Positions 10,276 to 23,951 of a stretch of DNA of 64,000 nt are shown one piece after another. Under the pieces are notes generated by a model. That model saw only the letters and a program-made list of their open reading frames with translations, was not told where the DNA came from and searched no databases. The stretch is taken from positions 4,815 through 68,814 of the forward strand of contig VFZU01000014.1 in assembly GCA_016870995.1 (NCBI GenBank). The letters are read 5' to 3'. Made by a program: the position numbers and the translations under genes. Position 1 is the stretch's first letter. The number at the start of each line of letters is the position of its first letter. This DNA comes from Acidobacteriota bacterium. Its GTDB lineage: Bacteria; Acidobacteriota; Terriglobia; Bryobacterales; Bryobacteraceae.

Positions 10276-11421
10276 CTAGCTGGTCTGCACGGATTGCCAG
10301 TTTCGTTCGCGCGCGCTCTTGAGCACGGCGTCGGTGACGTATTCCGTTTGCAGCGCATCGCGGAAGGAGGGAGCCGCAGGACTTCCCTTCTCCAGCGCAG
10401 TGACAAAATCGGCAACCTGGTGCACAAAGCTGTGCTCGTATCCAATCTGGAGACCAGGAACCCACCAGTTCTTCATGTAGGGTTGATCTCCATCAGAGAC
10501 GTGGATGCTCTTCCAGCCGCGCAGCTTTCCTTCGTCAGCATGATCGAAGTATTGGAGGCGGTGCAGATCATGGAGATCCCAGAAGAGAGAGGCCTTCTCG
10601 CCGTTCATTTCGAGAGTGTAGAGCGCCTTGTGGCCGCGGGCATAACGCGTGGCTTCAAAGGTCGCCAATGATCCGTTGGCAAATCTCGCGATGAACAAGC
10701 TGGCGTCGTCGATACCGACCTTCTCCACCTTACCTGTGAGGTTGTGCATGCGTTCTTTGACAAAGGTCTCGGTGGTGGCGCTCACCTCAGTGATCGGTCC
10801 GTTCAGCCACATGGCTGTATCGATGCAATGGGCCAGCAAATCGCCGGTGACGCCGCTGCCGGCGACATCGACATCGAGACGCCACAAAGCCGCCCCTCCT
10901 TGAGGAAGGTCTGCGTTGATGGTCCAATCCTGGAGAAACTTGGCACGATAATGGAACACTCGCCCCAGTCGGCCTTCATCGACGAGTTGTTTCGCCATGG
11001 TTACCGCAGGTACGCGGCGATAGTTGTACCAAACCATGTTGGCAACGCCGGCCTTTTCAACCGCGGCCACCATTGCTTCACTCTCAACCGCATTGCGACC
11101 CAGGGGCTTCTCGCAGAGAATCATTTTGCCGGCCGCAGCAGCAGCCAAAGCGATTTCTTTATGGGTGTCGTTGGGGCTGGCGATATCGATGACGTCGATA
11201 TCCTTACGTTCGATCAACTTGCGCCAGTCGGTCTCGATGGATTCGTAGCCCCAAGTGTCGGCAAAGGCCTGCGCCTTATCCGCGCTACGAGCGCAAGCAG
11301 CCTTGAGGACGATCTCGTGCTCAAGGGGGAAGAAGTTACCAACCTTACGAAAAGCGTTTGAATGGGCTCGGCCCATGAAGCCGTAGCCGACCATTCCGAC
11401 ATTCAGTTTTTTCTTTGTCAT
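10276..11421 (-). CDS. Gfo/Idh/MocA family oxidoreductase (cytoplasmic)
   Basis: [25 protein letters not shown]. Confidence 0.9.
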
Positions 11422-11427
11422 TCGTTG

Positions 11428-12471
11428 TTACTCCGTCCAACCGTGGGCTTCGCGCACTGCAATCATGCTGGCGAGGATGCTATTCCACGTATCCTGTTTC
11501 ATCAGCGTTTCGTTGGTGAACATGCAGCCGTCCCAGCAGATGTGACGGAATGCCTTGGTCAATTGCCCATCGGCGCCGCGCAGCCAATGGCCAGCGTCGC
11601 GAGCCACATTGAGCTTGCCATTCGGGTCGGTGGGAAGGCAGTGGCGGCCTGTCTTGTCATGTGAGCCAGATCCCTTGACGGTGGCATCGTTCTGGGCGAC
11701 GTGGAAGTCAAACGTCCAAGGCCGCAGGGCAGCGGTCATTTGAGCAAGTGCGGATTCGAGCGGTTGACGATCTTTCCAATCGTAATTTTCCGGTAAAATG
11801 CGATGTTCTGGCGCGTTGTAGCCCATCGTGTAGAGCAGCGTGTGGGCCATATCCGCCTGGAAGCCAACTGTCTCTGGCTCGCCGGTGAGCTCGAGCAATT
11901 CCTGCATGTACTTCCAGGAGTGCATGCCACCCCAGCAAATTTCACCTTCGGCAGCGAGCTTTTCGCCGTGATCTTTGGCGATGGCGGCAGCCTCTTTGAA
12001 AGTCGCGGCGATCTTCTTTTGGTTGCCCGCAGGATCCTGGGACCAATCGTGCGGAGAACAGGCCGAATCGATGCGGACAACGCCGTAGGGTCGGACGCCA
12101 AGTTTGCGCAACGATGCCGCGATACCGCAAGCCTTACGTACGCTCGACAGAAATGACGCGTGTTCCTCGGCGGTACCCATAGCTGAACCGCCACCAGTGG
12201 GCGGCCAAACGGGAGCGACAAGGCTGCCGACTACAAAACCTTTGGAAGAAATCTTGTCAGCCAGAGCCTGGATTGCATCCGCATCGGAATCAATACTCGT
12301 GTGCGGCTCGAAGAGAAACAGGTCCACACCATCGAACCGGGTACCGCCGACCTCTGCTTTTGCCGTCAAATCGAGCATCGTATCGAGGTCGATTGGAGGT
12401 TCAGAATCGGGACCCTTGCCGACCAGGCCAGGCCACATGGCGTTGTGGAGTTTAGGGAACACATTCGACAT
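11428..12471 (-). CDS. Xylose-isomerase-like TIM barrel (AP_endonuc_2) sugar phosphate isomerase/epimerase
   Basis: [26 protein letters not shown] metal-ligand pattern; 6 nt from the downstream Gfo/Idh/MocA gene. Confidence 0.8.
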
Positions 12472-12537
12472 AGCCAATACAGCATATCAACACAACACCA
12501 GTGTCTATACTATAGCATTTAGGATTGGAGGTGAGCT

Positions 12538-13416
12538 ATGCGTTGGGATCAAGGTCATGAAAGCGAAGATGTAGAAGATCGCCGCGGCGAGGGTGGTGCC
12601 GGAGGCGGCGGGATGGGGTTTGGTGGGTTTGGCGGAATGCGCGTCGGCTTCGGCGGGCTCGTCGTGCTTGGCATTCTGAGCTTTGTCTTCAAAGTCGATC
12701 TGATCAGTCCTTTCCTGGGTGGTGGAGGCTCGATGGCTCCGGTTACTGCCCGGCGAGAACCACGTCCAAGCAGCGCGCAGGAGAATACACTGGCGAAGTT
12801 TGTTGGCTTTGTTCTGGATGACGCGCAAAACACCTGGACGAAGATCCTCCCCGAACAGCAAGGTGTTTCTTATCGCAAAGCTCGACTGGTGTTGTTTCGC
12901 GACGCCGTCCGTAGCGGATGCGGAGATGCCGAGGGCGCCATGGGGCCGTTCTATTGCCCGGCCGACGAGCGCGTCTATATCGACTTAAATTTCTACGATG
13001 AACTCAAGCGTAAGTTCGGCGCACCGGGTGATTTTGCGCAGGCTTATGTGATTGCTCACGAACTGGGGCATCACTTGCAGAACGTGCTCGGGATCGAGCG
13101 CAAAGTGCGAATGCTGCAAGAACGGAATCCCAGGGCTCAGAAGCTATTGAGTGTGTTGATGGAATTACAAGCAGATTGTTTTGCCGGCATCTGGGCCCAT
13201 GAAACCCAGCAACGCGGATTGCTCGAGTCCGGCGACGTTGATGAGGCACTCAAGGCAGCCTCTGCTGTCGGAGATGACCACATCCAGCAAATGACAACGG
13301 GCCGCGTGAGACCAGAAAACTTCACCCACGGCTCGTCGGCCCAACGCAAGGAATGGTTTGCCCGCGGATTCGAAACTGGCAAGGTTAGTGCGTGCAACAC
13401 GTTCGCGGAAAACTAA
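12538..13416 (+). CDS. Neutral zinc metallopeptidase (YpfJ-like)
   Basis: GGAGG RBS; VEDRRG, GPFYCPAD, AHELGHH (HExxH), ELQADCFAG, FTHGSS. Confidence 0.9.
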   Translation: MRWDQGHESEDVEDRRGEGGAGGGGMGFGGFGGMRVGFGGLVVLGILSFVFKVDLISPFLGGGGSMAPVTARREPRPSSAQENTLAKFVGFVLDDAQNTWTKILPEQQGVSYRKARLVLFRDAVRSGCGDAEGAMGPFYCPADERVYIDLNFYDELKRKFGAPGDFAQAYVIAHELGHHLQNVLGIERKVRMLQERNPRAQKLLSVLMELQADCFAGIWAHETQQRGLLESGDVDEALKAASAVGDDHIQQMTTGRVRPENFTHGSSAQRKEWFARGFETGKVSACNTFAEN

Positions 13417-14180
13417 AACCCAAATTCAACCAATGTCTTCGACTGGTAGTCGAGTACGACGGTAGCAAGTACAGCGGGTGGGCTGAACAACGCAATGCCC
13501 GTACTGTGATGGGTGAATTGAGAACCGCGCTGGAACCCGTGCTGAAAAGCGAGATCGAATTGGTTGGCGCTGGAAGAACTGACTCGGGAGTGCATGCCCG
13601 AGGACAGGTGGCGCATGTGAAGTACTCGGCCGCAAAGCCTGCCGTGGAACCGTTTGTGCTGGCGCAGGCCAATCTGAAGCTGCCCGCAGAGATCTCGATA
13701 AGAAAACTTCACAAGGCACCCCTGGCATTTCATGCACGGCACGACGCAACCGAACGAGAGTACGTTTATCAAATCGCAACTCGCAAGACCGCATTCGAGA
13801 AGAAGCATGTCTGGTGGATCAAAGAACCTTTAAATGTCGCGGCCATGCAGGCCGGAGCGGCTCTCCTCGTGGGGCGGCACGACTTCAAGTGCTTTCAAGC
13901 GCAAGATCCGGGGCGGCCCAATGAATCCTCGATTGTGGTGGTGAATCAGGCAGCAATCGAGATACTGGAAGACCGTCTTTTGTTTCGGATTGCGACCTCA
14001 CACTTTGTCTGGAGGATGGTGAGGAGACTGACGGGCGTACTCGTGAAACTTGGCCTCGGTGAGATTTCGATCGAAGACCTCCAACTACTGTTAGAAGGCA
14101 AGGAACATTCAAGGCTGGATGTGGCGGCCTGGACGGCACCATCGGCAGGTTTGTTCTTCGAGCGGGTCAGCTACAACTAA
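13392..14180 (+). CDS. truA: tRNA pseudouridine(38-40) synthase
   Basis: EYDGS, GAGRTDSGVHARGQV, FHAR, GRHDF, FVWRMVRR, TAPSAGLF. Start uncertain (GTG overlapping the upstream gene). Confidence 0.92.
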   Translation: MQHVRGKLKPKFNQCLRLVVEYDGSKYSGWAEQRNARTVMGELRTALEPVLKSEIELVGAGRTDSGVHARGQVAHVKYSAAKPAVEPFVLAQANLKLPAEISIRKLHKAPLAFHARHDATEREYVYQIATRKTAFEKKHVWWIKEPLNVAAMQAGAALLVGRHDFKCFQAQDPGRPNESSIVVVNQAAIEILEDRLLFRIATSHFVWRMVRRLTGVLVKLGLGEISIEDLQLLLEGKEHSRLDVAAWTAPSAGLFFERVSYN

Positions 14181-14650
14181 TTCGCCTTGTCGTGGCAGAA
14201 AGTGCAGTCGTTGGACACTTTCTTTTGACGGTGGCAGTCCATGCAAGACCCCATGGACAACTCTTTCACTTTGGCCATAACTTCCAGCGACGAAACGTCG
14301 CCATGGCATTCAGAACAAGTATTGCCGCCCTCCATATGAGTTCGGTGACTCCAGAAAACGAAGGTGGGTACTTGATAGACACGCACCCAAGGCACACGCT
14401 TCTTTTCTGTGAAGAACTTGGCGAGTTTTTGAATGTCCTCTGAATCCTTCTTGATCACCTGATGACATCCCATACACTTCGCCTCCGCGGGAAACGTCAT
14501 CATCTCCCCTGGAGCAGGATTGATATGGCAGGATTCACACTTCAGGTTGAGCGAACCAGCATGCATCTTGTGGCTAAAGGCGATCGGCTGACGGGGCGGA
14601 TCCGCGCCCCACAACAATAAAGAAATCAAGATCACCGCAAAGTACTTCAT
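14177..14650 (-). CDS. Pentaheme c-type cytochrome (cytochrome c3/ActA/QrcA-like)
   Basis: Five CxxCH motifs (CESCH, CMGCH, CSECH, CMDCH, CTFCH); [10 protein letters not shown] and VPWVRVY...FWSHRTH motifs; N-terminal signal peptide. Confidence 0.88.
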
Positions 14651-16209
14651 AGGTTATTCTTTTTGGCTTGTTCAATGAGATATTCGCTGGCACGCAATGT
14701 CAGAGCAAGGATAGTCAGGGTTGGATTTTGCGCCCCACCGCTGACGAACGAGCTTCCATCGACAACAAATAGATTCTTGTGATCGTGCGTCTGATTGAAT
14801 TGATTCAGAACACTCGTCTTCGGGTCAGAACCCATACGGCAAGTGCCCAACTCATGAATGCTCTCACCGGGCGGAACCATTTCCCAATGCTTGGCGAGGA
14901 TTTCGAAGCCGGCATCTTTGCAAAGCTCTTCGGCAGTGTTCATCGAGTCTTTGGCCATTGCAAATTCGTTGGCTGTGTACTTCTGCTGAATGTGAAGCAC
15001 GGGGATGCCCCAAGCGTCGGTCTTCATGCGATTGATGCGGACAAAGCTCTCGAATCGTGGCAAGACTTCGCCCATGGTGGTTAGCGAGAAGCCGGCTCCT
15101 TGGGAGTCTGCCATTTGCTTCCACAACTTTTCGCCATACGACGAATAGTATTGAGGCCCGGGCGTATTGCCGCTGCCGAAATCGTAGGCGTATCCGCGGA
15201 TGAAGTCTTTGGATTTCGATTTCAAGTTGCGGAATCTTGGAATGTACCCGCCGCCGCCCATCAGGTTGCGAGGCGCATTGCCGCCGCGAGCTTCAGGAAC
15301 GATCGCCTGCACCACGTTCTTCACGTAGAACTGATCGAATAGATAGTGCCCCAGCACTCCGCTGGAATTGGCCAGTTTGCTGTTGAGCAGGATGCGAGTG
15401 GATTCAAGGCAGGAAGCACCCAGAACGACGGCTTTTGCCTTGACATGAAATTCACGTTTTGAAACCCGATCGACGAAATGGGCTCCGGTTACTTTGCCGG
15501 TTGCTTTGTCGCGGCTGAGCTCTCGCACAACAGCGTTTGGAACCAGAGTCAGGTTGCCGGTTGCGATGGCGTCGGGTAACAACAGATTCAAGCTGCTGGC
15601 CAGCGTACCTGTCGACCGGCGTTGCTTGGTGGTGGGAACCTCATGCTTCTTGCAACTCGCGAGAAACCTCTGCACACAAAGGCTGTCTCGCGACTCGTCG
15701 GGAAGTAAAACGCCGTCGGGAATCTGTTCGAAGCCCTCTTTGCGCCCACTGACACGAAACAGCGGCTCGACGCGGTCATAGAAAGGGACCAGGTCTTTGT
15801 AGGCAATCGGCCAGTTATCGCCGAATCCATCATGATCCTTGCACTTGAATTCGTAATCGCTTAAGCGCCAGGAAGCGCGGCCCCAAGCCAGAGTCTTGCC
15901 GCCTACAAGCCGAATGCGAACCCAGTAATACGGGTTGCCGGGATCGTAGGTATATGGATTCTGCTTCTCGTCGGCCCACATGTTGGCCGAGAATTCGTTT
16001 GCCTGCGTGACATGAGGGAAGCGTCCGGGCTTGCCAAAGCCGCGGTAGGGCAGATCGGCCACAGGTCGCAAAACTCGCTGCTTATCCGGGTCAATCATCG
16101 GGCCGGCATCGAGCATGATGCACTTGGCTCCCAATCGAGTGAGAGTATGCGCGGCCATGCCGCCGCTGGCACCGCTTCCAATGATGAGAACGTCGTATTC
16201 AGTCTTCAT
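14647..16209 (-). CDS. GMC family flavoprotein oxidoreductase (large subunit)
   Basis: [12 protein letters not shown] motif, [32 protein letters not shown]. Confidence 0.92.
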
Positions 16210-16217
16210 GCCGCACC

Positions 16218-16730
16218 CTATTCAACCGGAAGCCAGTAACTGCCGATACCCGCAGCGCTTCGGCTGCGGGTGGACATGGCTTCGGCCCATTGTCTTGAAT
16301 TGATCGTCGCTTGATGAAATGCCAGTTTCGCTGCCTGCAGGAACTTTGCATAGGGGGCAGAGGGCCCGGCGTAGGTCCACGGCTCGCTCAGTTCTTTCAA
16401 TGCCGCGTCGACACCAGCCTTGCGCCGCAGAAGATAGGTCGCGATTCCTTGCTTGTAGAGCACCTGGATCTCATTTGGGCTTTGGCCCAGAAGGAAATCC
16501 AGGAACTCGGGGGCTTCGGCTTCTTTGGCGCCCGGCCGGCCGTCAAACGGAGGGATCAACGTCTGTCCCAACTCAGCGAATGCTTCCATTTCTGGTGCGC
16601 TGAAGAACTTCGGCAGCCCCATCGAAACGGCTTCGGCTGCAGTGGTAGGGATTTGAGCATCAGACGACTGCCACCCCATGGCGGCCGGGGCCAGCCCGAG
16701 CATTGAGTAGAGAATGGAACGACGTTGCAT
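16218..16730 (-). CDS. Gluconate 2-dehydrogenase subunit 3-like small subunit (Tat carrier)
   Basis: MQRRSIL twin-arginine start; FFS...LIP...[13 protein letters not shown]; directly upstream of the GMC gene. Confidence 0.75.
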
Positions 16731-16741
16731 GCGGCTCCTGA

Positions 16742-17833
16742 TTACTTGACGAAACGGATGCAGACGGGGCTACCCACATTGACGGGTTTTCCCGCTGGGG
16801 TGAGTTTTCCGCCCGCGACATCTACCTTGAAGGAAACGACCTGATCTGAATTCTGCGCGCCAGCTACCAGGACGTTTGCTTCCGGGGACAGAACGAACCC
16901 ACGAGGAACTTTGCCGCCCAATGGCTGCTGGCCCAACAATTGCAGCCCTCCCGTAAGCGTGGAAGCGCGATAGATCGAGATGCTGTCATGCCCACGATTG
17001 GAGCTTAACAGCAAAGAACCTTTAGGATGGAGAACCACCTCGGCACCGGAAGTGTTGCCTTTGAAATCGGCCGGGATCGCAGAAACTGTGGTGATGGGCT
17101 TTGCGCTGGGTTCGCCTTTCCACCGGAACACACTCACGCTGGACCCCATCTCGTTCAGAACGTAAGTCAAGCCATCTTTGCCAAGAGCAAGATGGCGCGG
17201 CCCGCCACCCTTGGGCAATTCCAGAACGCTCTTTTCCGTGATTGCGCCGGTCTTGGCATCAAACGAGTAGATCTTTATTTCATCAAGCCCAAGGTCCGCC
17301 ACGAAGAGAAACTTGTTGTCTGCGGAAAAATTCACGGAATGGGCGTGCGGACCTTCCTGCCGTGCAGGATTCACACTCTTTCCCTTATGCTGAACCGTCG
17401 CCACGGCCTCGCCCAGCTTGCCATCCGGCCCCACAGGCAAAATCGCGGCAGTGCCACTCGAATAGTTGGCAACGGCGATCCACTTGCCAGTCTTGTCGAA
17501 ATTCAAATGGCAGGGCGCATCGCCTTTGGACTTGACCTTGTTTAACAATTGCAGCTTGCCGTCCGCACCGATCGAGAATGCCGAAACATCGCCATTGCGA
17601 ACTTCGTTTACAGCATAGAGGAACTTGCCCCCCTTACTGGTGGCGAGGAAAGAGGGATTCTCGCTCTCGGCTGCCAGAGTGGGCTCGGACAATTCGCCGG
17701 TGGATTCCTTGAGTTGAACCCGATAAATTCCCTTGCTGCCTCCTGGCTTGGTGTATGTGCCTATGTATGCAACCCGGTCGGCTGCGGCAAGGATCGTGGT
17801 TATTAGTATGGGCAATGCGAAAACGCGTTTCAT
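16742..17833 (-). CDS. Secreted lactonase (YbhE/Pgl 7-bladed propeller)
   Basis: Signal peptide; AYIGTYT, ENPSFLA, ANYSSG, PHAHS, DLGLD, GPRH, SNRGHDSI, PRGF. Confidence 0.9.
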   Translation of the reverse strand: MKRVFALPILITTILAAADRVAYIGTYTKPGGSKGIYRVQLKESTGELSEPTLAAESENPSFLATSKGGKFLYAVNEVRNGDVSAFSIGADGKLQLLNKVKSKGDAPCHLNFDKTGKWIAVANYSSGTAAILPVGPDGKLGEAVATVQHKGKSVNPARQEGPHAHSVNFSADNKFLFVADLGLDEIKIYSFDAKTGAITEKSVLELPKGGGPRHLALGKDGLTYVLNEMGSSVSVFRWKGEPSAKPITTVSAIPADFKGNTSGAEVVLHPKGSLLLSSNRGHDSISIYRASTLTGGLQLLGQQPLGGKVPRGFVLSPEANVLVAGAQNSDQVVSFKVDVAGGKLTPAGKPVNVGSPVCIRFVK

Positions 17834-18882
17834 GATGAGATGCTTTCAGATTCAGAATTCAAACCAACCACCGTGCTGTACTCCTTCAGGAGTTTGGCGA
17901 CGGCAATGGCGAGTGAAAATACGATGGGACCGGCGAATAGGCCGACCAGGCCGAAGGCGTCGATGCCTCCGAGCAATGCGAAGAACATGATCGCCGTATT
18001 CATGCGAGCGCTCTCGCTCAGCACGATGGGCCGAATCACATTATCCGCCATGCTGACGACAAGTAGTCCCCAGGCAAGAAGAATTCCAGCCTTGGCTAAA
18101 GCTCCAATGCTCGCCAGATAAATCACGGCAGGGATCCAGATCAAGCCAGCGCCGATAAAAGGCAGGACACTGAGAAGTGCTGCGAGAGATCCCCAAAAGA
18201 TGCCGGACGGTAAGCCTGTCATCCAGAAGCCTACGGTCGTGAGCGCTCCTTGTGCGAGTGCAACGGCTAAGACCCCATATACGTTGGCGAACATCAAACG
18301 GCGGGTCTCCTCAAAGAGTCCGTTGACCATTGCAGCGGGCAGCGGAATCCAGTGTTTCGACTGATCCATTAGCAATCTGCCGCCGCGAAACAGGAAGAAC
18401 ATTGTGGTGAGAGTGACGACGCTTGAAAAGACCCAGGACCCAAGCCCTTGGATGCTTTTTAATGCGTTCGAAAGAAGACTTGAAGATAATCCGCTCAATC
18501 TGCTTTGAATGAATTCATTGGTCTTTGCAGTATCCCAGCCTAGCTTGGCGCCAAAGAACTGAACGGCGCGATCGAATCGTTCGAGGCTTTCAGGCGAGCT
18601 GATGGCATCGAGTGCGTGCTTCATCTCCTGACTAATCACAACTCCCAAAATGGTCACGGGCACCAGAAACAAAATGCCTGTGCCGAGCGTGCAAATCCAC
18701 GAAGCCAGATTGGGGCGGCCAGTCTTTCGTTCGAGCCATGAGTACACGGGGTAAAACACAATGGCAAGGACGAGCGCCAAAAAGATCTCGCTAAAGAACG
18801 GCCGCAGTACAAGAAAGCATCCGTATCCGAGCCCAAGGAGAAGGATGGCGAGGACAATCCAGGTAGTGATACGAGAATTCAA
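17830..18882 (-). CDS. AI-2E family transporter (PerM-like)
   Basis: Multi-TM profile; LPFIGAGLIWIP, DNVIRP, GLVGLFAGP. Confidence 0.9.
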   Translation of the reverse strand: MNSRITTWIVLAILLLGLGYGCFLVLRPFFSEIFLALVLAIVFYPVYSWLERKTGRPNLASWICTLGTGILFLVPVTILGVVISQEMKHALDAISSPESLERFDRAVQFFGAKLGWDTAKTNEFIQSRLSGLSSSLLSNALKSIQGLGSWVFSSVVTLTTMFFLFRGGRLLMDQSKHWIPLPAAMVNGLFEETRRLMFANVYGVLAVALAQGALTTVGFWMTGLPSGIFWGSLAALLSVLPFIGAGLIWIPAVIYLASIGALAKAGILLAWGLLVVSMADNVIRPIVLSESARMNTAIMFFALLGGIDAFGLVGLFAGPIVFSLAIAVAKLLKEYSTVVGLNSESESISS

Positions 18883-18885
18883 AGC

Positions 18886-20094
18886 CTAGCTCTCCAGCCT
18901 GCGCGCCTGCTTCAGGTAATCGGGATCGAAATCCACACCAAGACCAGTTCCCGTGGGAACAGGAAGCTTGCCATTTCGAATTCTCAAATTCGGGGTGTAC
19001 CAACTGACCGGCTTGGGTATTGCACGGTGAGGAAACTCCATGAAAGGGCCAATGTTTGGAATTGCAGCAGCAAAAGCGACGATCTTCACGCCCGCAGCAT
19101 CGATTTGAGTATTGTGAGGCGTAATCGGTATCTTTGCCTTGGCGGCCATACGGGCAATACGCGCGGCGCGAACGATGCCCCCACAATAATTCAGATCAGG
19201 CTGAACGATGTCGATCACACGACGCTCGATCATGTCGGCGAACTTCCAAAGCGAACTGTCACATTCGCCCCCCGCGACCGGCATTGCAATTGCGTCAGCG
19301 ACCCGTTTGGTTTCTGATTCTTCTTCCCATGGGCACGGCTCTTCAAAGAATGCAATCTTCAAATCGGCCAGCCACTTTGCGGTGTCGATTGCCGAGGCAG
19401 AATCGTAGCCTCCATTGGCATCCACATAAATCGTGATGTCTTCGCCCATGCGCTTGCGAGCCAATTCGAGCATCTTGCGCGTGCGGCCGGGATAATGGTC
19501 GACGTTGCGGTTCATGCGACCGCCAATCTTGAACTTCACTGCCTTGGCCTGCGTCTCGGCGAGCCCCCGGTCGTACACCTCAACTTCCTCTTCGGCTGTG
19601 GTTTCGCGACCCGATCCCGACAGGTAGACCGGGATTTCGGTACGTAGAACTCCGCCCATCAATTCAGGCACAGGCTTCTTGGCAACCCGGCCCATGAGAT
19701 CCCACGTGGCTTGTTCCACCGCCGCCACCGGGCTCCAGAATGGCTGCCCAGCCAATTTGTAGTTTTTGATGTAGACGTCGTCGACGATGGATTCGAGGTC
19801 TCTGGCGTCACGACCGACAAAGCCGGGAATCACTCTGTGCAGAAGAATCGGCAGAAAGTCATCGATCTCTTTGGTGCGCACAACACCTGTCGCTCCATCG
19901 CTCGAATGGACGACAACAAACGTCGCTTTGCCGCTCTCGAGTACTTCCACTTTGGCGATTTTGATAGGAGAAGAGATTTGCTTTCGCAAATCGAACAAGG
20001 GTGCTTCGTAAGCCGGAACACGGCGAGGATAGTCTTGGGCGAATGCTTGGCAAGCGGCTGCTGCGATTGAGGGAACGAACAAGCGGCGTTGCAT
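18886..20094 (-). CDS. Mandelate racemase/muconate lactonizing enzyme family protein with possible twin-arginine signal
   Basis: MQRRLFV start; KAVKFK (KxK), YVDANG, FFEEP, GGECD, IVQPD, PHN. Confidence 0.85.
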   Translation of the reverse strand: MQRRLFVPSIAAAACQAFAQDYPRRVPAYEAPLFDLRKQISSPIKIAKVEVLESGKATFVVVHSSDGATGVVRTKEIDDFLPILLHRVIPGFVGRDARDLESIVDDVYIKNYKLAGQPFWSPVAAVEQATWDLMGRVAKKPVPELMGGVLRTEIPVYLSGSGRETTAEEEVEVYDRGLAETQAKAVKFKIGGRMNRNVDHYPGRTRKMLELARKRMGEDITIYVDANGGYDSASAIDTAKWLADLKIAFFEEPCPWEEESETKRVADAIAMPVAGGECDSSLWKFADMIERRVIDIVQPDLNYCGGIVRAARIARMAAKAKIPITPHNTQIDAAGVKIVAFAAAIPNIGPFMEFPHRAIPKPVSWYTPNLRIRNGKLPVPTGTGLGVDFDPDYLKQARRLES

Positions 20095-20113
20095 TATGAC
20101 CATTAGTATTCTT

Positions 20114-20653
20114 TCACAAGACCGGAGCGTTCAAGGTCGCTTCCGCCTGAAGAAGATGGCGGTGCTCATGGGCCAGCCAAAGATCGAGGGAAAAATCGGC
20201 GGGATACTTCATCCATGTGGCAAAGGGAGATCGGATGGGTATGCCACCCTTGTGTGACTATTGCAGTTGCGAAGCCACTTCGTACACGCGCTGCCGGACA
20301 GGCAGATACTCAGCAATAGCGGACTGCAATTCGCGACGATTTGCAGGTTCGAGGCTGCTGGGGGTTTTCGCTCTTAGCTGCGCCGGATTTGCGATGCGAG
20401 ACAGAAACCAACGCCACCAGAAGGCATAGGTTGTGCCATCACGAACCGCGGGCTCGTTCATCAGAACCGTCCAAAGATCCAGGTATTGAGTAGCGGTCAA
20501 GTTCAGATGTTCCACGCACTGGGCGGCGGACCATCCTTCTCCTGTCGGCCTTTGGTCCTTTTTTGCTTGCCCCAATCGTTCGAACCGCTGCGTGTTCCGC
20601 TCAAACTCCTGATTTCAACAATCGAGGTCGAACTTCTTCGGAGTCTCCGTCAT
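20114..20653 (-). pseudogene. DinB-family gene interrupted by two in-frame stops (TGA 20617-20615, TAG 20260-20258)
   Basis: One frame from ATG 20653 to TGA 20116-20114: MTETPKKFDLDC*NQEFERNTQRFERLGQ...WSAAQCVEHL...QLQ*SHKGGIPIRSPFATW...WLAHEHRHLLQAE. The DinB His motifs (EHL, AHExRH) lie on either side of the TAG. Confidence 0.82.
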
Positions 20654-20725
20654 CGCCCTTGATTAGATCATCGTTCGCAAGCGAATGGGCTGATTCACGA
20701 TTCATCGAATATGATAGAGGATCAA

Positions 20726-22288
20726 ATGCCAAGTGAAGTTTTTGATGTTGTTATCATTGGTTCCGGTGCTTGCGGCGGAACTTTGGCTGCGCACCTCGCT
20801 CGGGCAGGCGTCAATGTCTGCGTTGTAGAAGGTGGTCCGAAAATTGAGACGCGAACCGACTTCAACACACATGCGATGCCATACGAGTTTCCCAATCGCG
20901 GGATTCCCAAAATGCGGAATAACAAGCCGGGATTCGATACGGAACGCAGCCGAGGACTAGGCGGCAAATCGATGCTTTGGAACGCGGTGGCATGGAGATT
21001 CGGTCCGCGCGACTTTGAAGGCTACACACGCGACGGTGTTGGTTACGACTGGCCCATCAGCTACAAAGATCTTGCGCCCTATTACGATCGAATCGAACGG
21101 GAAGTTGGTGTTTGCGGGAATCTAGATGGCCTCGAAGATTTGCCTGATGGCTTCTTTCTACCGCCTGCGCCTATGAAGTGCTCCGACATTTTGATTCAGC
21201 GCGGCGCAGCCAAGCTCGGCAGGAAAGTGATCCACGTTCGCAAGGCGACACTAACCAGGCCGAAGTTTGGACGCCCGGCCTGCCACTATTGTGGAAACTG
21301 CATGGCAGGGTGTGACGTTGCCGCCAAATACAACTCATGGGATGGCCACATGCGCCCACTCATGAAGTCTGGCAAGATCACGCTGCAATTGGATAGCGTT
21401 GTCTTTGACATTCCCGTCAACGCCGAAAACAAGGTGACTGGCGTCAAGTTCGTCAATCGCACCACACTGGCTCAGGGTGAGGTGAAAGGCAAAGTGGTTG
21501 TTCTGGCAGCGGCCTGCGTGCAGAACGTGGCACTGCTATTGCAATCCAAATCGTCCCGCTATCCGAATGGGCTAGCCAACTCATCAGGCCGGGTTGGCAA
21601 AGACTTCATGCCGCATTTCACCGGCGGCGTGGAGGCCTTCCTGAAGCCGCTCATCGGAAAACAAATCACCAACGACGAAGGCTTTCTCGACCACGCCTAT
21701 CTGCCCAGCTTCATGCACACCCAGAAGCGGAACTATGCACGCAGTTGGGGAGCGCAATTCAACTATCAGAATCGACGCAGCGTCGGCTGGGCTAGAGCTC
21801 TGCCCGGAATGGGTGAGGCTTACAAGCAAGCCGTGAAAGACCGCTATCCAAGCTATTTCGTCTTCTCTCCCTATGGCGAGAAGACGCCTGACGAGAAGAG
21901 TTATGTCGATCTGGATCCCGGCAAGAAGGACAAGTTTGGATTGCCTGAAGTGCGGCGCTTCTTGTATTGGAATGAAAACGATATGAAGATTTTTCGAGAT
22001 ATGCAGCAGCAATCTCGGGCCATCCTCGAAGCCGCAGGGGCTGAGATTCATCGGGTCTATGAAGAGCCGCGACCGAATCATGAAATCGGCGGCACAATCA
22101 TGGGCAAGGATCCGCGGAAATCGGTGACCGACAGCTTTGGCCGAACCCATGACGTAAACAATCTCTACACGCTGGGCGGCAACATTTTGCCCTCCGCTTC
22201 GGAGAAGAACCCGACCCATACCTTTATGGCCGTGTCGGCCCGCACAGCCGAACATCTCATCGAACAACTGAAGAAAGGGAGCGTCTAG
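20726..22288 (+). CDS. GMC family flavoprotein oxidoreductase with a Cys-cluster motif
   Basis: IIGSGACGG, GGKSMLWNA, CHYCGNCMAGC, HEIGGTIMG, NPTHT. Confidence 0.92.
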   Translation: MPSEVFDVVIIGSGACGGTLAAHLARAGVNVCVVEGGPKIETRTDFNTHAMPYEFPNRGIPKMRNNKPGFDTERSRGLGGKSMLWNAVAWRFGPRDFEGYTRDGVGYDWPISYKDLAPYYDRIEREVGVCGNLDGLEDLPDGFFLPPAPMKCSDILIQRGAAKLGRKVIHVRKATLTRPKFGRPACHYCGNCMAGCDVAAKYNSWDGHMRPLMKSGKITLQLDSVVFDIPVNAENKVTGVKFVNRTTLAQGEVKGKVVVLAAACVQNVALLLQSKSSRYPNGLANSSGRVGKDFMPHFTGGVEAFLKPLIGKQITNDEGFLDHAYLPSFMHTQKRNYARSWGAQFNYQNRRSVGWARALPGMGEAYKQAVKDRYPSYFVFSPYGEKTPDEKSYVDLDPGKKDKFGLPEVRRFLYWNENDMKIFRDMQQQSRAILEAAGAEIHRVYEEPRPNHEIGGTIMGKDPRKSVTDSFGRTHDVNNLYTLGGNILPSASEKNPTHTFMAVSARTAEHLIEQLKKGSV

Positions 22289-22834
22289 ATGTCTGACAAC
22301 CACTACGACGACGGTCGACGCGAGACGATCAAGATCATCGGGGCGATCGGAATCCAGTGTGCTTTTCCATTTGCGGGTGACGAACTCTATGGGCAGCACC
22401 AGCATCCTGTTGCCTCTCGCGGCGCTGACCCCGGGCCACCCAAGTTCTTCAACCCTGACCAATTCGCGATTCTGAGCAAGATCAGCGATTTGATTGTTCC
22501 CGGTGCCGTGAAGGCGCAAGTGCCAAACTACATCGATCTTGTCGTGCGCAGCAATGACGGGCATCGCAAGACCTATACAGACGGGTTGGCCTGGCTAGCC
22601 GAAAAGAATTTTCTGAAGCTGACCGAAGCTGAGCAACTGGCCATCCTTGAGCCCATTTGCGTCGCAGTGGATCGTGGAGAAACCACAACGCTCGAACAGA
22701 AGTTCTTTCGCGCAGCAAAGAACATGACGGCAGACGGCTACTATACTTCCCGTGCCGGGCTTGTCGAAGACCTTGGATACCTGGGCAACCAGGTGCTTGC
22801 TGAATTTCCGGAGTGCAAACTAGATGAACACTAA
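22289..22834 (+). CDS. Gluconate 2-dehydrogenase subunit 3 family protein
   Basis: GRRETIK twin-arginine-like motif; FFNPDQF...IVPGA...VPNYID; GYYTS...LGYLGN; abuts the GMC gene. Confidence 0.85.
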   Translation: MSDNHYDDGRRETIKIIGAIGIQCAFPFAGDELYGQHQHPVASRGADPGPPKFFNPDQFAILSKISDLIVPGAVKAQVPNYIDLVVRSNDGHRKTYTDGLAWLAEKNFLKLTEAEQLAILEPICVAVDRGETTTLEQKFFRAAKNMTADGYYTSRAGLVEDLGYLGNQVLAEFPECKLDEH

Positions 22835-23951
22835 ATGGCTAACGCTTACCTTCGTTGTTGCTGCGTTGTTGCCAGGCGGTCGCCGCCCCGCAGACTTGAA
22901 TTTCAAGAAGACTATGCTCGATGGGGGTGCCGCTGAGACTGCCGCAATTGTAGACATCAATGGAGACGGCAAACCGGACATCGTAAGCGGCGAATATTGG
23001 TACGCTAACCCGACCTGGAAGAAAACTCAATTCCGCGAACTCAACTTCGAAAACAACTACATTGATGCCTTCTCAGACTTGCCTTTGGATGTAGATGGTG
23101 ATGGCAATATTGACATCATCACGGCTACGTATTTCCAAAAGAAACTCAGTTGGTACCGCAACCCGGGAAAGGGTGTCGGCAAATGGGTGGAATCGGTGAT
23201 CGACACCGCCGGGCCTGTGGAATTTGCATTTCTTGTTGATCTGGACAACGACGGCAAAGCCCATGAGATTTTGCCGCAGTACGGCGGAAAGACCGAGACC
23301 TGCTGGTATCGCTTCTCTAAAGGCAAGTGGGAAAAAGTCATCGCAAACTCCATGAATTTGGGCCATGGAATTGGCGCTGGGGACATCAACAAAGATGGGC
23401 GTACGGACATTCTGAGTCCTGCGGGCTGGCTGGAAGCACCGGCGAATCCGACGGACACAAACTGGAGACTCCACCGGGATTTCCCCACGCTGAAGGGATC
23501 GAGCTTCATGTATGTGTTCGACGTGAATGGTGATGGCCGCAATGACGTCGTCAGTGGCAATGCGCACGACTATGGTTTTTACTGGCTGGAGCAAAACGCA
23601 GGTGGCACTTTTGAGATGCGTATGATCGACGATTCCTGGTCGCAACCACACGCGATCACGATGGTCGACCTAAACAAAGATGGGCGTGCCGATTTTCTAA
23701 CGGGCAAGCGCTACATGGCTCACAATGGCAAAGACCCTGGCGAGCGCGAGCCGCTCGGCGTCTATTGGTTTGAATCCCACAAGGATTCCAACGGGAAATT
23801 GCAGTGGACCAAGCATGTCATCGACTACTCCACGCGCACCGGCGGAGGCATGCAGCTTCCGGTTGCAGACATCAATGGCGATGGACTGCTCGACATCGTG
23901 GCCCCGGGTAAGTCTGGGTTGTACCTGTTTACCGGTTCGCCTACTTTGTAA
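22824..23951 (+). CDS. Secreted FG-GAP/VCBS repeat protein
   Basis: Signal peptide; repeated DxNGDGxxD motifs (DINGDGKPD, DVDGDGNID, DLDNDG, DINKDGRTD, DVNGDGRND, DLNKDGRAD, DINGDGLLD). Confidence 0.9.
   Translation: MNTKWLTLTFVVAALLPGGRRPADLNFKKTMLDGGAAETAAIVDINGDGKPDIVSGEYWYANPTWKKTQFRELNFENNYIDAFSDLPLDVDGDGNIDIITATYFQKKLSWYRNPGKGVGKWVESVIDTAGPVEFAFLVDLDNDGKAHEILPQYGGKTETCWYRFSKGKWEKVIANSMNLGHGIGAGDINKDGRTDILSPAGWLEAPANPTDTNWRLHRDFPTLKGSSFMYVFDVNGDGRNDVVSGNAHDYGFYWLEQNAGGTFEMRMIDDSWSQPHAITMVDLNKDGRADFLTGKRYMAHNGKDPGEREPLGVYWFESHKDSNGKLQWTKHVIDYSTRTGGGMQLPVADINGDGLLDIVAPGKSGLYLFTGSPTL

Follow-up and report, generated by a model that had tools for sequence, protein, structure and literature searches.

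Which acceptor takes the electrons of a flavoprotein dehydrogenase that lacks the iron-sulfur relay of its closest solved relatives, and whose gene overlaps one for a cytochrome of the kind found in a respiratory complex? The question is raised by an operon within a 64,000-nucleotide stretch of DNA (hereafter the window) from an Acidobacteriota bacterium of the family Bryobacteraceae (assembly GCA_016870995.1, contig VFZU01000014.1, positions 4,815 to 68,814), in which a gene for a GMC-family flavin adenine dinucleotide (FAD) dehydrogenase is followed by a gene for a small pentahaem cytochrome c related to ActA of alternative complex III (ACIII). Three-subunit FAD dehydrogenases are the workhorses of direct-electron-transfer (DET) glucose and fructose biosensors, and an electron path from FAD through a 3Fe-4S cluster to a trihaem cytochrome is regarded as their hallmark. 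The comparative evidence assembled here makes it rather probable that the cytochrome of the window is the dedicated electron acceptor of an Fe-S-less GMC dehydrogenase, and it suggests that stand-alone relatives of ActA serve as an electron-acceptor module.

The dehydrogenase-cytochrome pair and its conservation

The pair closes a run of six minus-strand genes at 14177-20094, which in the direction of transcription encode an enolase-superfamily (MR/MLE) enzyme, an AI-2E family transporter, a lactonase, a small subunit with a twin-arginine signal, the GMC flavoprotein and the cytochrome, with intergenic distances of 3, -4, 11, 8 and -4 nt. A sequence-only reading of this DNA had described the same run, and all its open reading frames (ORFs) were found as placed; its family assignments agree with Pfam and NCBIfam, with a weak and partial match in the case of the small subunit. 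The core consists of the small subunit (16218-16730, 170 aa), the GMC catalytic subunit (14647-16209, 520 aa; Pfam GMC_oxred_C at 1.9e-21, plus GMC_oxred_N) and the cytochrome (14177-14650, 157 aa). The stop codon of the GMC gene and the start codon of the cytochrome gene share an ATGA overlap, which suggests translational coupling of the two genes. The arrangement recurs in dozens of genomes and is therefore not due to chance. The neighbour of the cytochrome gene on the other strand is TruA, and a scan of positions 13300-20800 for promoter and terminator consensus sequences gave matches no commoner than in shuffled sequence.

Conservation of the pairing was assessed in two sets of loci. In the set centred on the cytochrome, comprising 47 loci from one-genome-per-species contigs with a closer 8-sequence alignment as query, the order small subunit-GMC-cytochrome was found in about 33, down to 47% cytochrome and 64% GMC identity. 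In the set centred on the GMC protein, for which 97 of the 151 genomes of the order have a match, the cytochrome lies immediately downstream of the GMC gene in 20 of the best 30 loci (55-100% identity), while the small subunit lies directly upstream in every locus that reaches far enough in that direction. The same GMC-cytochrome pair was detected in three more families (L088, L089, L111) in a scan of 401 genomes of the phylum. The cytochrome is thus conserved beside the GMC gene in relatives, the opposite of what would have refuted the earlier reading. Furthermore, the cytochrome and the GMC protein diverge from the window copies in step: over 53 loci, their identities correlate with a Spearman coefficient of 0.78 that is not corrected for shared ancestry. 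Of the wider synteny that the earlier reading had suggested looking for, with a lactonase beside the three subunits, the three-gene core recurs across the order, while the lactonase accompanies it at the Bryobacter level only. To judge by the names of the closest homologues and loci, the genome of the window is itself a Bryobacter one; Bryobacter aggregatus has an orthologue of the cytochrome at 68% identity.

A stand-alone ActA-like cytochrome

The 157-aa cytochrome, of the c3/c7/ActA type, contains exactly the five CxxCH motifs that had been counted in it (CESCH, CMGCH, CSECH, CMDCH and CTFCH). Its N-terminus includes a 13-residue h-region typical of a cleaved signal, and the Sec-type start is kept in orthologues; predicted cleavage at about the junction of LLLWG and ADPP would leave about 141 aa, an apoprotein of about 16 kDa. 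Its Kyte-Doolittle hydropathy over 19 residues peaks at 1.19, at the N-terminus, and so stays under the transmembrane threshold of 1.6 throughout, in agreement with the earlier view that it has a signal-like N-terminus and no other transmembrane segment. On the same measure, the genome's own ActA reaches 1.68 over residues 26-45. A membrane anchor like that of ActA was accordingly rejected on hydropathy.

The proposed likeness to ActA and QrcA is upheld for ActA by both sequence and fold. In phmmer searches, the cytochrome matched the ActA chains of all four solved ACIII structures (8k9e, 1.9e-28; 6f0k, 1.2e-25; 6btm, 7.6e-23; 6lod, 5.5e-21). An AlphaFold2 (AF2) model built on 95 homologues has a predicted local distance difference test (pLDDT) score of 91.4, and its top four Foldseek matches are ACIII ActA chains (E 5e-9 to 9e-8, TMq 0.65-0.77), the next match having an E of 0.2. 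The NCBIfam equivalog model NF041781 for QrcA, which belongs to the menaquinone reductase Qrc, aligns over nearly its full length at 84.4 bits, under its cut-off of 180. Across the 95 homologues, the five CxxCH motifs and H27, H30, H102, H105 and M133 are invariant, and the latter five are the predicted distal ligands, four His and one Met. Their count agrees with that reported for ActA of R. marinus, which has four bis-His haems and one His/Met haem, arranged as a linear wire of about 45 A (PMC5928083).

The genome also encodes a bona fide ActA of 232 aa, anchored and 35% identical to the window cytochrome, within an act operon on contig C107. An origin of the window cytochrome as the ActA displaced from that operon was rejected, as the act operon is complete and includes its anchored ActA. 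Compared with the latter, the window cytochrome lacks an N-terminal region of about 55 residues that carries the transmembrane helix, and only 13 residues separate its haem motifs 4 and 5, against 49 in ActA, so that an insert of about 35 residues is absent. We regard it as a secreted, probably soluble, stand-alone relative of ActA, as judged from these sequence features.

Trees of 119 and 78 cytochromes place the dehydrogenase-linked copies on one side, and ActA proper together with copies that precede ActB-like genes on the other. This split between stand-alone and complex-embedded cytochromes has a Shimodaira-Hasegawa-like approximate likelihood ratio test (SH-aLRT) value of 87 in a quick tree, and ultrafast bootstrap (UFBoot)/SH-aLRT values of 89/76 and 85/61 in a careful tree. 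Partner-specific subclades are visible within the tree, and none of the dehydrogenase-linked copies examined has an ActB, ActC or NrfD-type gene in its vicinity. In a separate group of loci from many Acidobacteriota (L094, L096-L103, L105-L108, L110, L112-L115 and L134-L136), a cytochrome of the family lies directly upstream of an ActB-like gene; these ActB-like genes are only 23-28% identical to the genome's ActB and may belong to a second, divergent type of ACIII/Qrc-like complex.

The partners of the stand-alone cytochromes extend beyond GMC flavoproteins. On contig C86 of the same genome, a 159-aa paralogue with 42% identity overlaps by 4 nt the end of a gene for a 593-aa pyrroloquinoline quinone (PQQ) dehydrogenase (Pfam PQQ, 7e-181), and such a pair of PQQ dehydrogenase and cytochrome occurs at no fewer than eight (>=8) further loci of the phylum. 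In Blastocatellia metagenome-assembled genomes (L033, L036), the cytochrome comes after a ThuA-family protein, and in two other lineages (L037, L084) it comes after an amine-oxidase-like flavoprotein. When 1.84 billion representative proteins were searched exhaustively, 2871 clusters of the family matched at E<=1e-3; 1381 of them did so at E<=1e-10, and 67 at E<=1e-30. In one metagenomic member, P0286 (824 aa), a complete PQQ dehydrogenase is followed in the same chain by an ActA-like pentahaem domain that occupies residues 686-821 at the C-terminal end, and P0321 represents a fragment of such a fusion. Fusions that occur in nature are a classical argument that the fused parts are functionally linked. 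Because relatives of the cytochrome adjoin, or are fused to, other periplasmic dehydrogenases, the cytochrome looks like a reusable electron-acceptor module.

Several of these loci have features of their own. The cluster on C86 (4511-14446, locus L086) consists, in order, of genes for a TonB-dependent receptor, the PQQ dehydrogenase, the pentahaem paralogue, a Tat-signal Gfo/Idh/MocA oxidoreductase (Tat, twin-arginine translocation), a DUF6807 protein, a 3-hydroxyisobutyrate-dehydrogenase-like protein and a sodium-solute symporter, and forms a second periplasmic oxidation cluster of this genome with the same cytochrome module. The ThuA-type cluster (L033, 7198-10045, and L036) comprises a type II dehydroquinase, the ThuA-family protein, the ActA-like pentahaem cytochrome (with a 4-nt overlap) and a shikimate-dehydrogenase-like protein, and may be a periplasmic or redox-linked module of quinate/shikimate type. 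P0286, for its part, would be a multihaem quinohaemoprotein.

A flavoprotein without the 3Fe-4S relay, its export and its substrate

Among solved structures, the GMC protein is closest to the large subunit of fructose dehydrogenase (FDH; 7w2j, 1.1e-33 to 1.8e-33) and to the alpha subunit of the FAD-dependent glucose dehydrogenase (FAD-GDH) of B. cepacia (6a2u, 4.7e-27), and its C-terminal domain also matches pyranose 2-oxidases and glycoside 3-oxidases. In the known enzymes, a loop with Cys212, Cys218 and Cys222 holds a 3Fe-4S cluster through which electrons pass from FAD to the multihaem subunit, and this cysteine loop has been described as conserved among reported FAD dehydrogenase complexes (PMC6719666). 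The window protein has a 17-residue alignment gap exactly where a paralogue carries CHYCGNCMAGC, and the 3Fe-4S cysteine motif was found in none of 62 orthologues. The earlier comparison with the Burkholderia and Gluconobacter three-subunit enzymes therefore stands as to the homologous GMC subunit and fails as to the 3Fe-4S loop, which has been lost.

The paralogue that retains the motif is encoded in the window itself, on the plus strand and divergent from the operon. This second GMC flavoprotein (20711-22288) shares 29% identity with that of the operon, and its CHYCGNCMAGC aligns with the FDH motif; it is followed by its small subunit (22289-22834, PF13618 at 60 bits) and an FG-GAP repeat protein (22824-23951), both also on the plus strand. 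No cytochrome gene lies beside this cluster (20711-23951), which is kept in L005, L006 and L008. The window thus holds a GMC protein with a cytochrome and without the relay, and another with the relay and without a cytochrome, the reverse of the textbook expectation. Since the relay is absent from the cytochrome-paired protein, the pair cannot be a simple copy of the Burkholderia/Gluconobacter system, and as the 3Fe-4S cluster is lacking throughout this GMC lineage, its FAD would have to pass electrons to a haem without an intermediate or by way of the protein matrix.

The GMC protein has no signal peptide and begins with its FAD-binding fold, whereas the small subunit carries a twin-arginine signal whose M[KQ]RR start is kept in about 50 orthologues; such a combination fits hitchhiker export, in which the small subunit presumably takes the already folded flavoprotein with it through Tat. 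Any relation of this subunit to the solved hitchhiker subunits would be distant. It matches Pfam Gluconate_2-dh3 (PF13618) at 25.3 bits against a cut-off of 23.4, over residues 46-98 only, a weak and partial match; searches of the PDB by single sequence and by a 46-orthologue profile gave no meaningful match, and its AF2 model (pLDDT 79.9) gave no significant Foldseek match.

The substrate is addressed by the three genes upstream of the core. The lactonase (16742-17833, minus, 363 aa), a 7-bladed beta-propeller protein with a Sec-type signal, matches Pfam Lactonase over its full length (1.3e-108) and the periplasmic gluconolactonase PpgL (PDB 6igb) at 2.1e-44, and its hydrophobic N-terminal signal is kept in orthologues. 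Upstream of it lies the gene for an inner-membrane transporter of the AI-2E (PerM) family (17830-18882, minus, 350 aa, TTG start; Pfam AI-2E_transport, 6.8e-47). The enolase-family enzyme (18886-20094, minus) has both the N- and C-terminal MR_MLE domains (MR_MLE_C, 1e-49). Its longest ORF spans 18886-20103, with the ATG of MQRR at 20094, and the latter is the likely true start because orthologues begin at the same residue. The MQRRTFL start is kept in all Bryobacter orthologues, from which Tat export of the enzyme is predicted; the twin-arginine signals noted previously on this protein and on the small subunit are thus both conserved. To our knowledge, Tat export or a periplasmic location is unusual for the enolase superfamily. 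The best NCBIfam equivalog matches are arabinonate dehydratase (130 bits, cut-off 650), galactonate dehydratase (126 bits, cut-off 311) and gluconate dehydratase, all far under their cut-offs, and the closest PDB matches are 3u4f and 3tcs, which have no assigned function, with galactonate dehydratase 5olc at 2.5e-30. On these matches, the enzyme is probably an acid-sugar dehydratase.

Non-phosphorylative sugar oxidation pathways typically begin with a dehydrogenase, a lactonase and a dehydratase. A chain from aldose to lactone to aldonate and on to a dehydrated product is accordingly a plausible function of the operon, to which we give slightly less than an even chance. The lactone step of the chain drawn in the sequence-only reading fits a PpgL-like lactonase; the chain as a whole is inferred, and the extra genes occur in near relatives only. 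In fact, the lactonase, AI-2E and enolase-family genes stand beside the core only in Bryobacter-level relatives (GMC identity of at least about 77%), where the three are syntenic with it in about 12 genomes. Distant core loci (L026, L031 and others) show no consistent substrate theme among their neighbours, which include homoserine dehydrogenase, FAA hydrolase, peptidases, an AMP-ligase and an AAA ATPase.

The pairing may also be real while the chemistry is different, with the GMC enzyme oxidising something other than C1 of a free aldose, such as C2 or C3 of a glycoside, a polyol or a non-sugar alcohol, and the lactonase and enolase-family genes serving a different or loosely related step. The core unit is widespread without lactonase or enolase-family neighbours, fructose dehydrogenase, the nearest solved relative, oxidises C5 of fructose rather than the anomeric carbon, the likeness of the C-terminal domain to pyranose 2-oxidases and glycoside 3-oxidases points the same way, and every equivalog model of the enolase family is far under its cut-off. 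However, the extra genes in Bryobacter are packed with the core (gaps of 3-11 nt or overlaps) and keep their synteny across the dozen or so genomes, the lactonase most resembles a periplasmic gluconolactonase, and the three enzymes match the standard pathway. We therefore regard this alternative as unlikely, although it keeps appreciable weight.

Two neighbouring features of the operon may be recorded here. In Bryobacter, two genes at 10276-12477 (minus strand), for a Gfo/Idh/MocA oxidoreductase and a xylose-isomerase-like TIM-barrel protein, keep their synteny with the operon, with identities of 82-95%. Oppositely oriented genes for TruA and an M48-like peptidase lie between these two and the operon. 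The oxidoreductase and the TIM-barrel protein may be a related pair that processes keto-sugars. Directly upstream of the enolase-family gene, a DinB_2-like frame (20114-20575, minus; Pfam 20.6 bits, under the cut-off) is interrupted by an in-frame TAG at 20258-20260, continues for 47 more codons that include an HEHRH motif, and ends at a TGA 10 nt before the start of the longest ORF of the enolase-family gene. This frame may reflect a pseudogene or a sequencing error.

The electron path and comparison with known systems

Several observations weigh against a dedicated pairing or against the substrate proposed for it. Ten of the 30 GMC-centred loci, including all four at 57% identity or less, have no adjacent cytochrome or CxxCH ORF, and on the downstream side, in GMC orientation, these ten have no other cytochrome (one of them, L080, has a single monohaem ORF on the opposite strand); the enzyme can therefore do without this cytochrome and use a different acceptor. 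The match of the small subunit to its Pfam family is marginal, with no sequence or fold match to solved hitchhiker subunits, and the trees separate stand-alone from complex-embedded cytochromes with moderate rather than strong support. In addition, the substrate inference is weak, because the extra genes join the core at genus level only and distant loci have unrelated neighbours.

The absence of the cytochrome from one third of the GMC orthologues would also suit a general periplasmic carrier whose gene merely adjoins the GMC gene, and so would the unrelated neighbours of some close cytochrome homologues (L020, L021) and the sheer size of the family, with its 1381 representative clusters at E<=1e-10. 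However, a carrier of this kind appears very unlikely in view of the coupling suggested by the ATGA overlap, the gene order kept at 47-83% cytochrome identity, the partner-specific subclades, the co-varying divergence of the two proteins and the fusion of the same module to a PQQ dehydrogenase. A dedicated acceptor of the GMC dehydrogenase thus remains the favoured role of the cytochrome.

From these features we infer a working scheme that comprises complex formation, direct FAD-to-haem transfer, a downstream acceptor, a substrate and an order of chemical steps. The GMC protein would fold and bind FAD in the cytoplasm and then ride the small twin-arginine-signal subunit through Tat, while the pentahaem cytochrome would be exported by Sec and mature in the periplasm. 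The flavoprotein would oxidise an alcohol or hemiacetal group, in Bryobacter most likely C1 of an aldose to give a lactone, and FADH2 would directly reduce a haem of the bound or docked cytochrome, whose ActA-type linear five-haem wire (about 45 A in solved ActA) could take the electrons away from the enzyme. In Bryobacter, the PpgL-like lactonase would turn the lactone into the aldonate, from which the Tat-exported enolase-family enzyme would remove water to yield a 2-keto-3-deoxy acid in the periplasm, and the AI-2E permease may transport the product.

Candidate acceptors for the electrons are encoded on contig C107, where ActA, ActB, ActC, ActD, ActE and ActF are followed by caa3 oxidase genes and where CoxII of the caa3 oxidase carries a fused cytochrome c domain. 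The electrons may pass to a c-type acceptor, such as this domain or ActE, and then to the terminal oxidase, and they probably bypass the quinone pool because the cytochrome has neither a membrane anchor nor a partner with a quinone site. Alternatively, the cytochrome might dock on ACIII or a Qrc-like complex and feed its Fe-S wire, so that the quinone pool is reduced or the ACIII-caa3 supercomplex is entered. The cytochrome is an ActA homologue, QrcA homologues accept periplasmic electrons for quinone reduction, ACIII is encoded in the genome, and the surface-exposed FeS4 of R. marinus ACIII could exchange electrons with an external carrier (PMC5928083). Yet no ActB, ActC or NrfD-type gene accompanies the dehydrogenase-linked copies examined, the stand-alone clade is separate from the ActB-linked ones, and the protein lacks both the N-terminal region of ActA and the insert of about 35 residues between haem motifs 4 and 5, which makes such docking distinctly unlikely. 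Equally improbable, in our judgement, is a broader form of the idea, in which stand-alone ActA-like pentahaem cytochromes would be a general adaptor family, not described so far, linking GMC, PQQ, ThuA-like and amine-oxidase-like proteins to the respiratory chain by docking on ACIII, alone or in its supercomplex with caa3; the orphan Fe-S cluster on the surface of ActB would be one conceivable site. If true, ACIII would be a hub that gathers periplasmic as well as quinol electrons.

With transfer from the GMC protein to its own cytochrome as the preferred reading, the implications are several. If the pairing is functional, it would represent a compact flavoprotein-multihaem candidate for direct electron transfer, the fold of an ACIII subunit would also be in use away from ACIII, as an acceptor that several classes of dehydrogenase can share, and the operon would suggest how Acidobacteriota link the periplasmic oxidation of sugars or other substrates to respiration, a poorly known side of their physiology. 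Moreover, the Tat-exported enolase-family enzyme hints at a periplasmic version of a non-phosphorylative sugar-acid pathway.

Among known systems, PQQ methanol dehydrogenase (MDH) with cytochrome cL, the PQQ ethanol dehydrogenase ExaA with cytochrome c550 ExaB, and the type II quinohaemoprotein alcohol dehydrogenases with a fused cytochrome c all pass electrons from a periplasmic dehydrogenase to its own adjacent or fused small cytochrome and bypass the quinone pool, as we propose for the window pair. The PQQ dehydrogenase and pentahaem cytochrome of C86 make up an adjacent pair of just this kind, and P0286 is a fused counterpart. In contrast to MDH/cL and ExaA/ExaB, the window pair would use a multihaem ActA-type wire rather than a monohaem class-I cytochrome, and its donor is a flavoprotein rather than a quinoprotein. 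The lactonase belongs to the same exported beta-propeller family as Pseudomonas aeruginosa PpgL (6igb), which functionally follows a periplasmic sugar dehydrogenase, although the match is at family level only (E 2e-44). With ActA (6f0k, 6btm, 8k9e, 6lod), the window cytochrome has in common the fold, the order of the five haem motifs and the predicted ligand set. It differs from ActA and QrcA in having no N-terminal transmembrane helix, no ActB-F or QrcB-D neighbours and no insert between motifs 4 and 5, and in forming a separate clade; with respect to QrcA, it also falls below the equivalog cut-off.

The closest comparison is with the DET-type FAD dehydrogenases, namely the B. cepacia FAD-GDH (BcGDH; 6a2u, 8grj, gamma-alpha-beta) and Gluconobacter japonicus FDH (7w2j), which have a homologous GMC catalytic subunit, a gene for a small subunit with a twin-arginine signal just upstream, a c-type cytochrome gene in the operon and a periplasmic location, the last being a prediction for the window system. 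Unlike these enzymes, the window GMC protein has no 3Fe-4S cysteine loop, its small subunit is barely recognisable as PF13618, and in place of a trihaem class-I subunit of about 45 kDa it is paired with an unrelated 16-kDa ActA-type pentahaem cytochrome that has no membrane anchor; the known FAD dehydrogenase cytochrome subunits are trihaem (PMC5979317, PMC8601194). In the literature searched, neither GMC nor PQQ dehydrogenases were found to have been described together with a cytochrome of ActA type, and both the combination of an Fe-S-less flavoprotein with a multihaem cytochrome and the proposed use of the ActA fold as a portable electron-acceptor module therefore appear to be new. The operon would thus offer a natural alternative to the three-subunit design in an abundant soil and freshwater lineage, with the same scaffold, no Fe-S cluster and a small five-haem wire of the ActA family.

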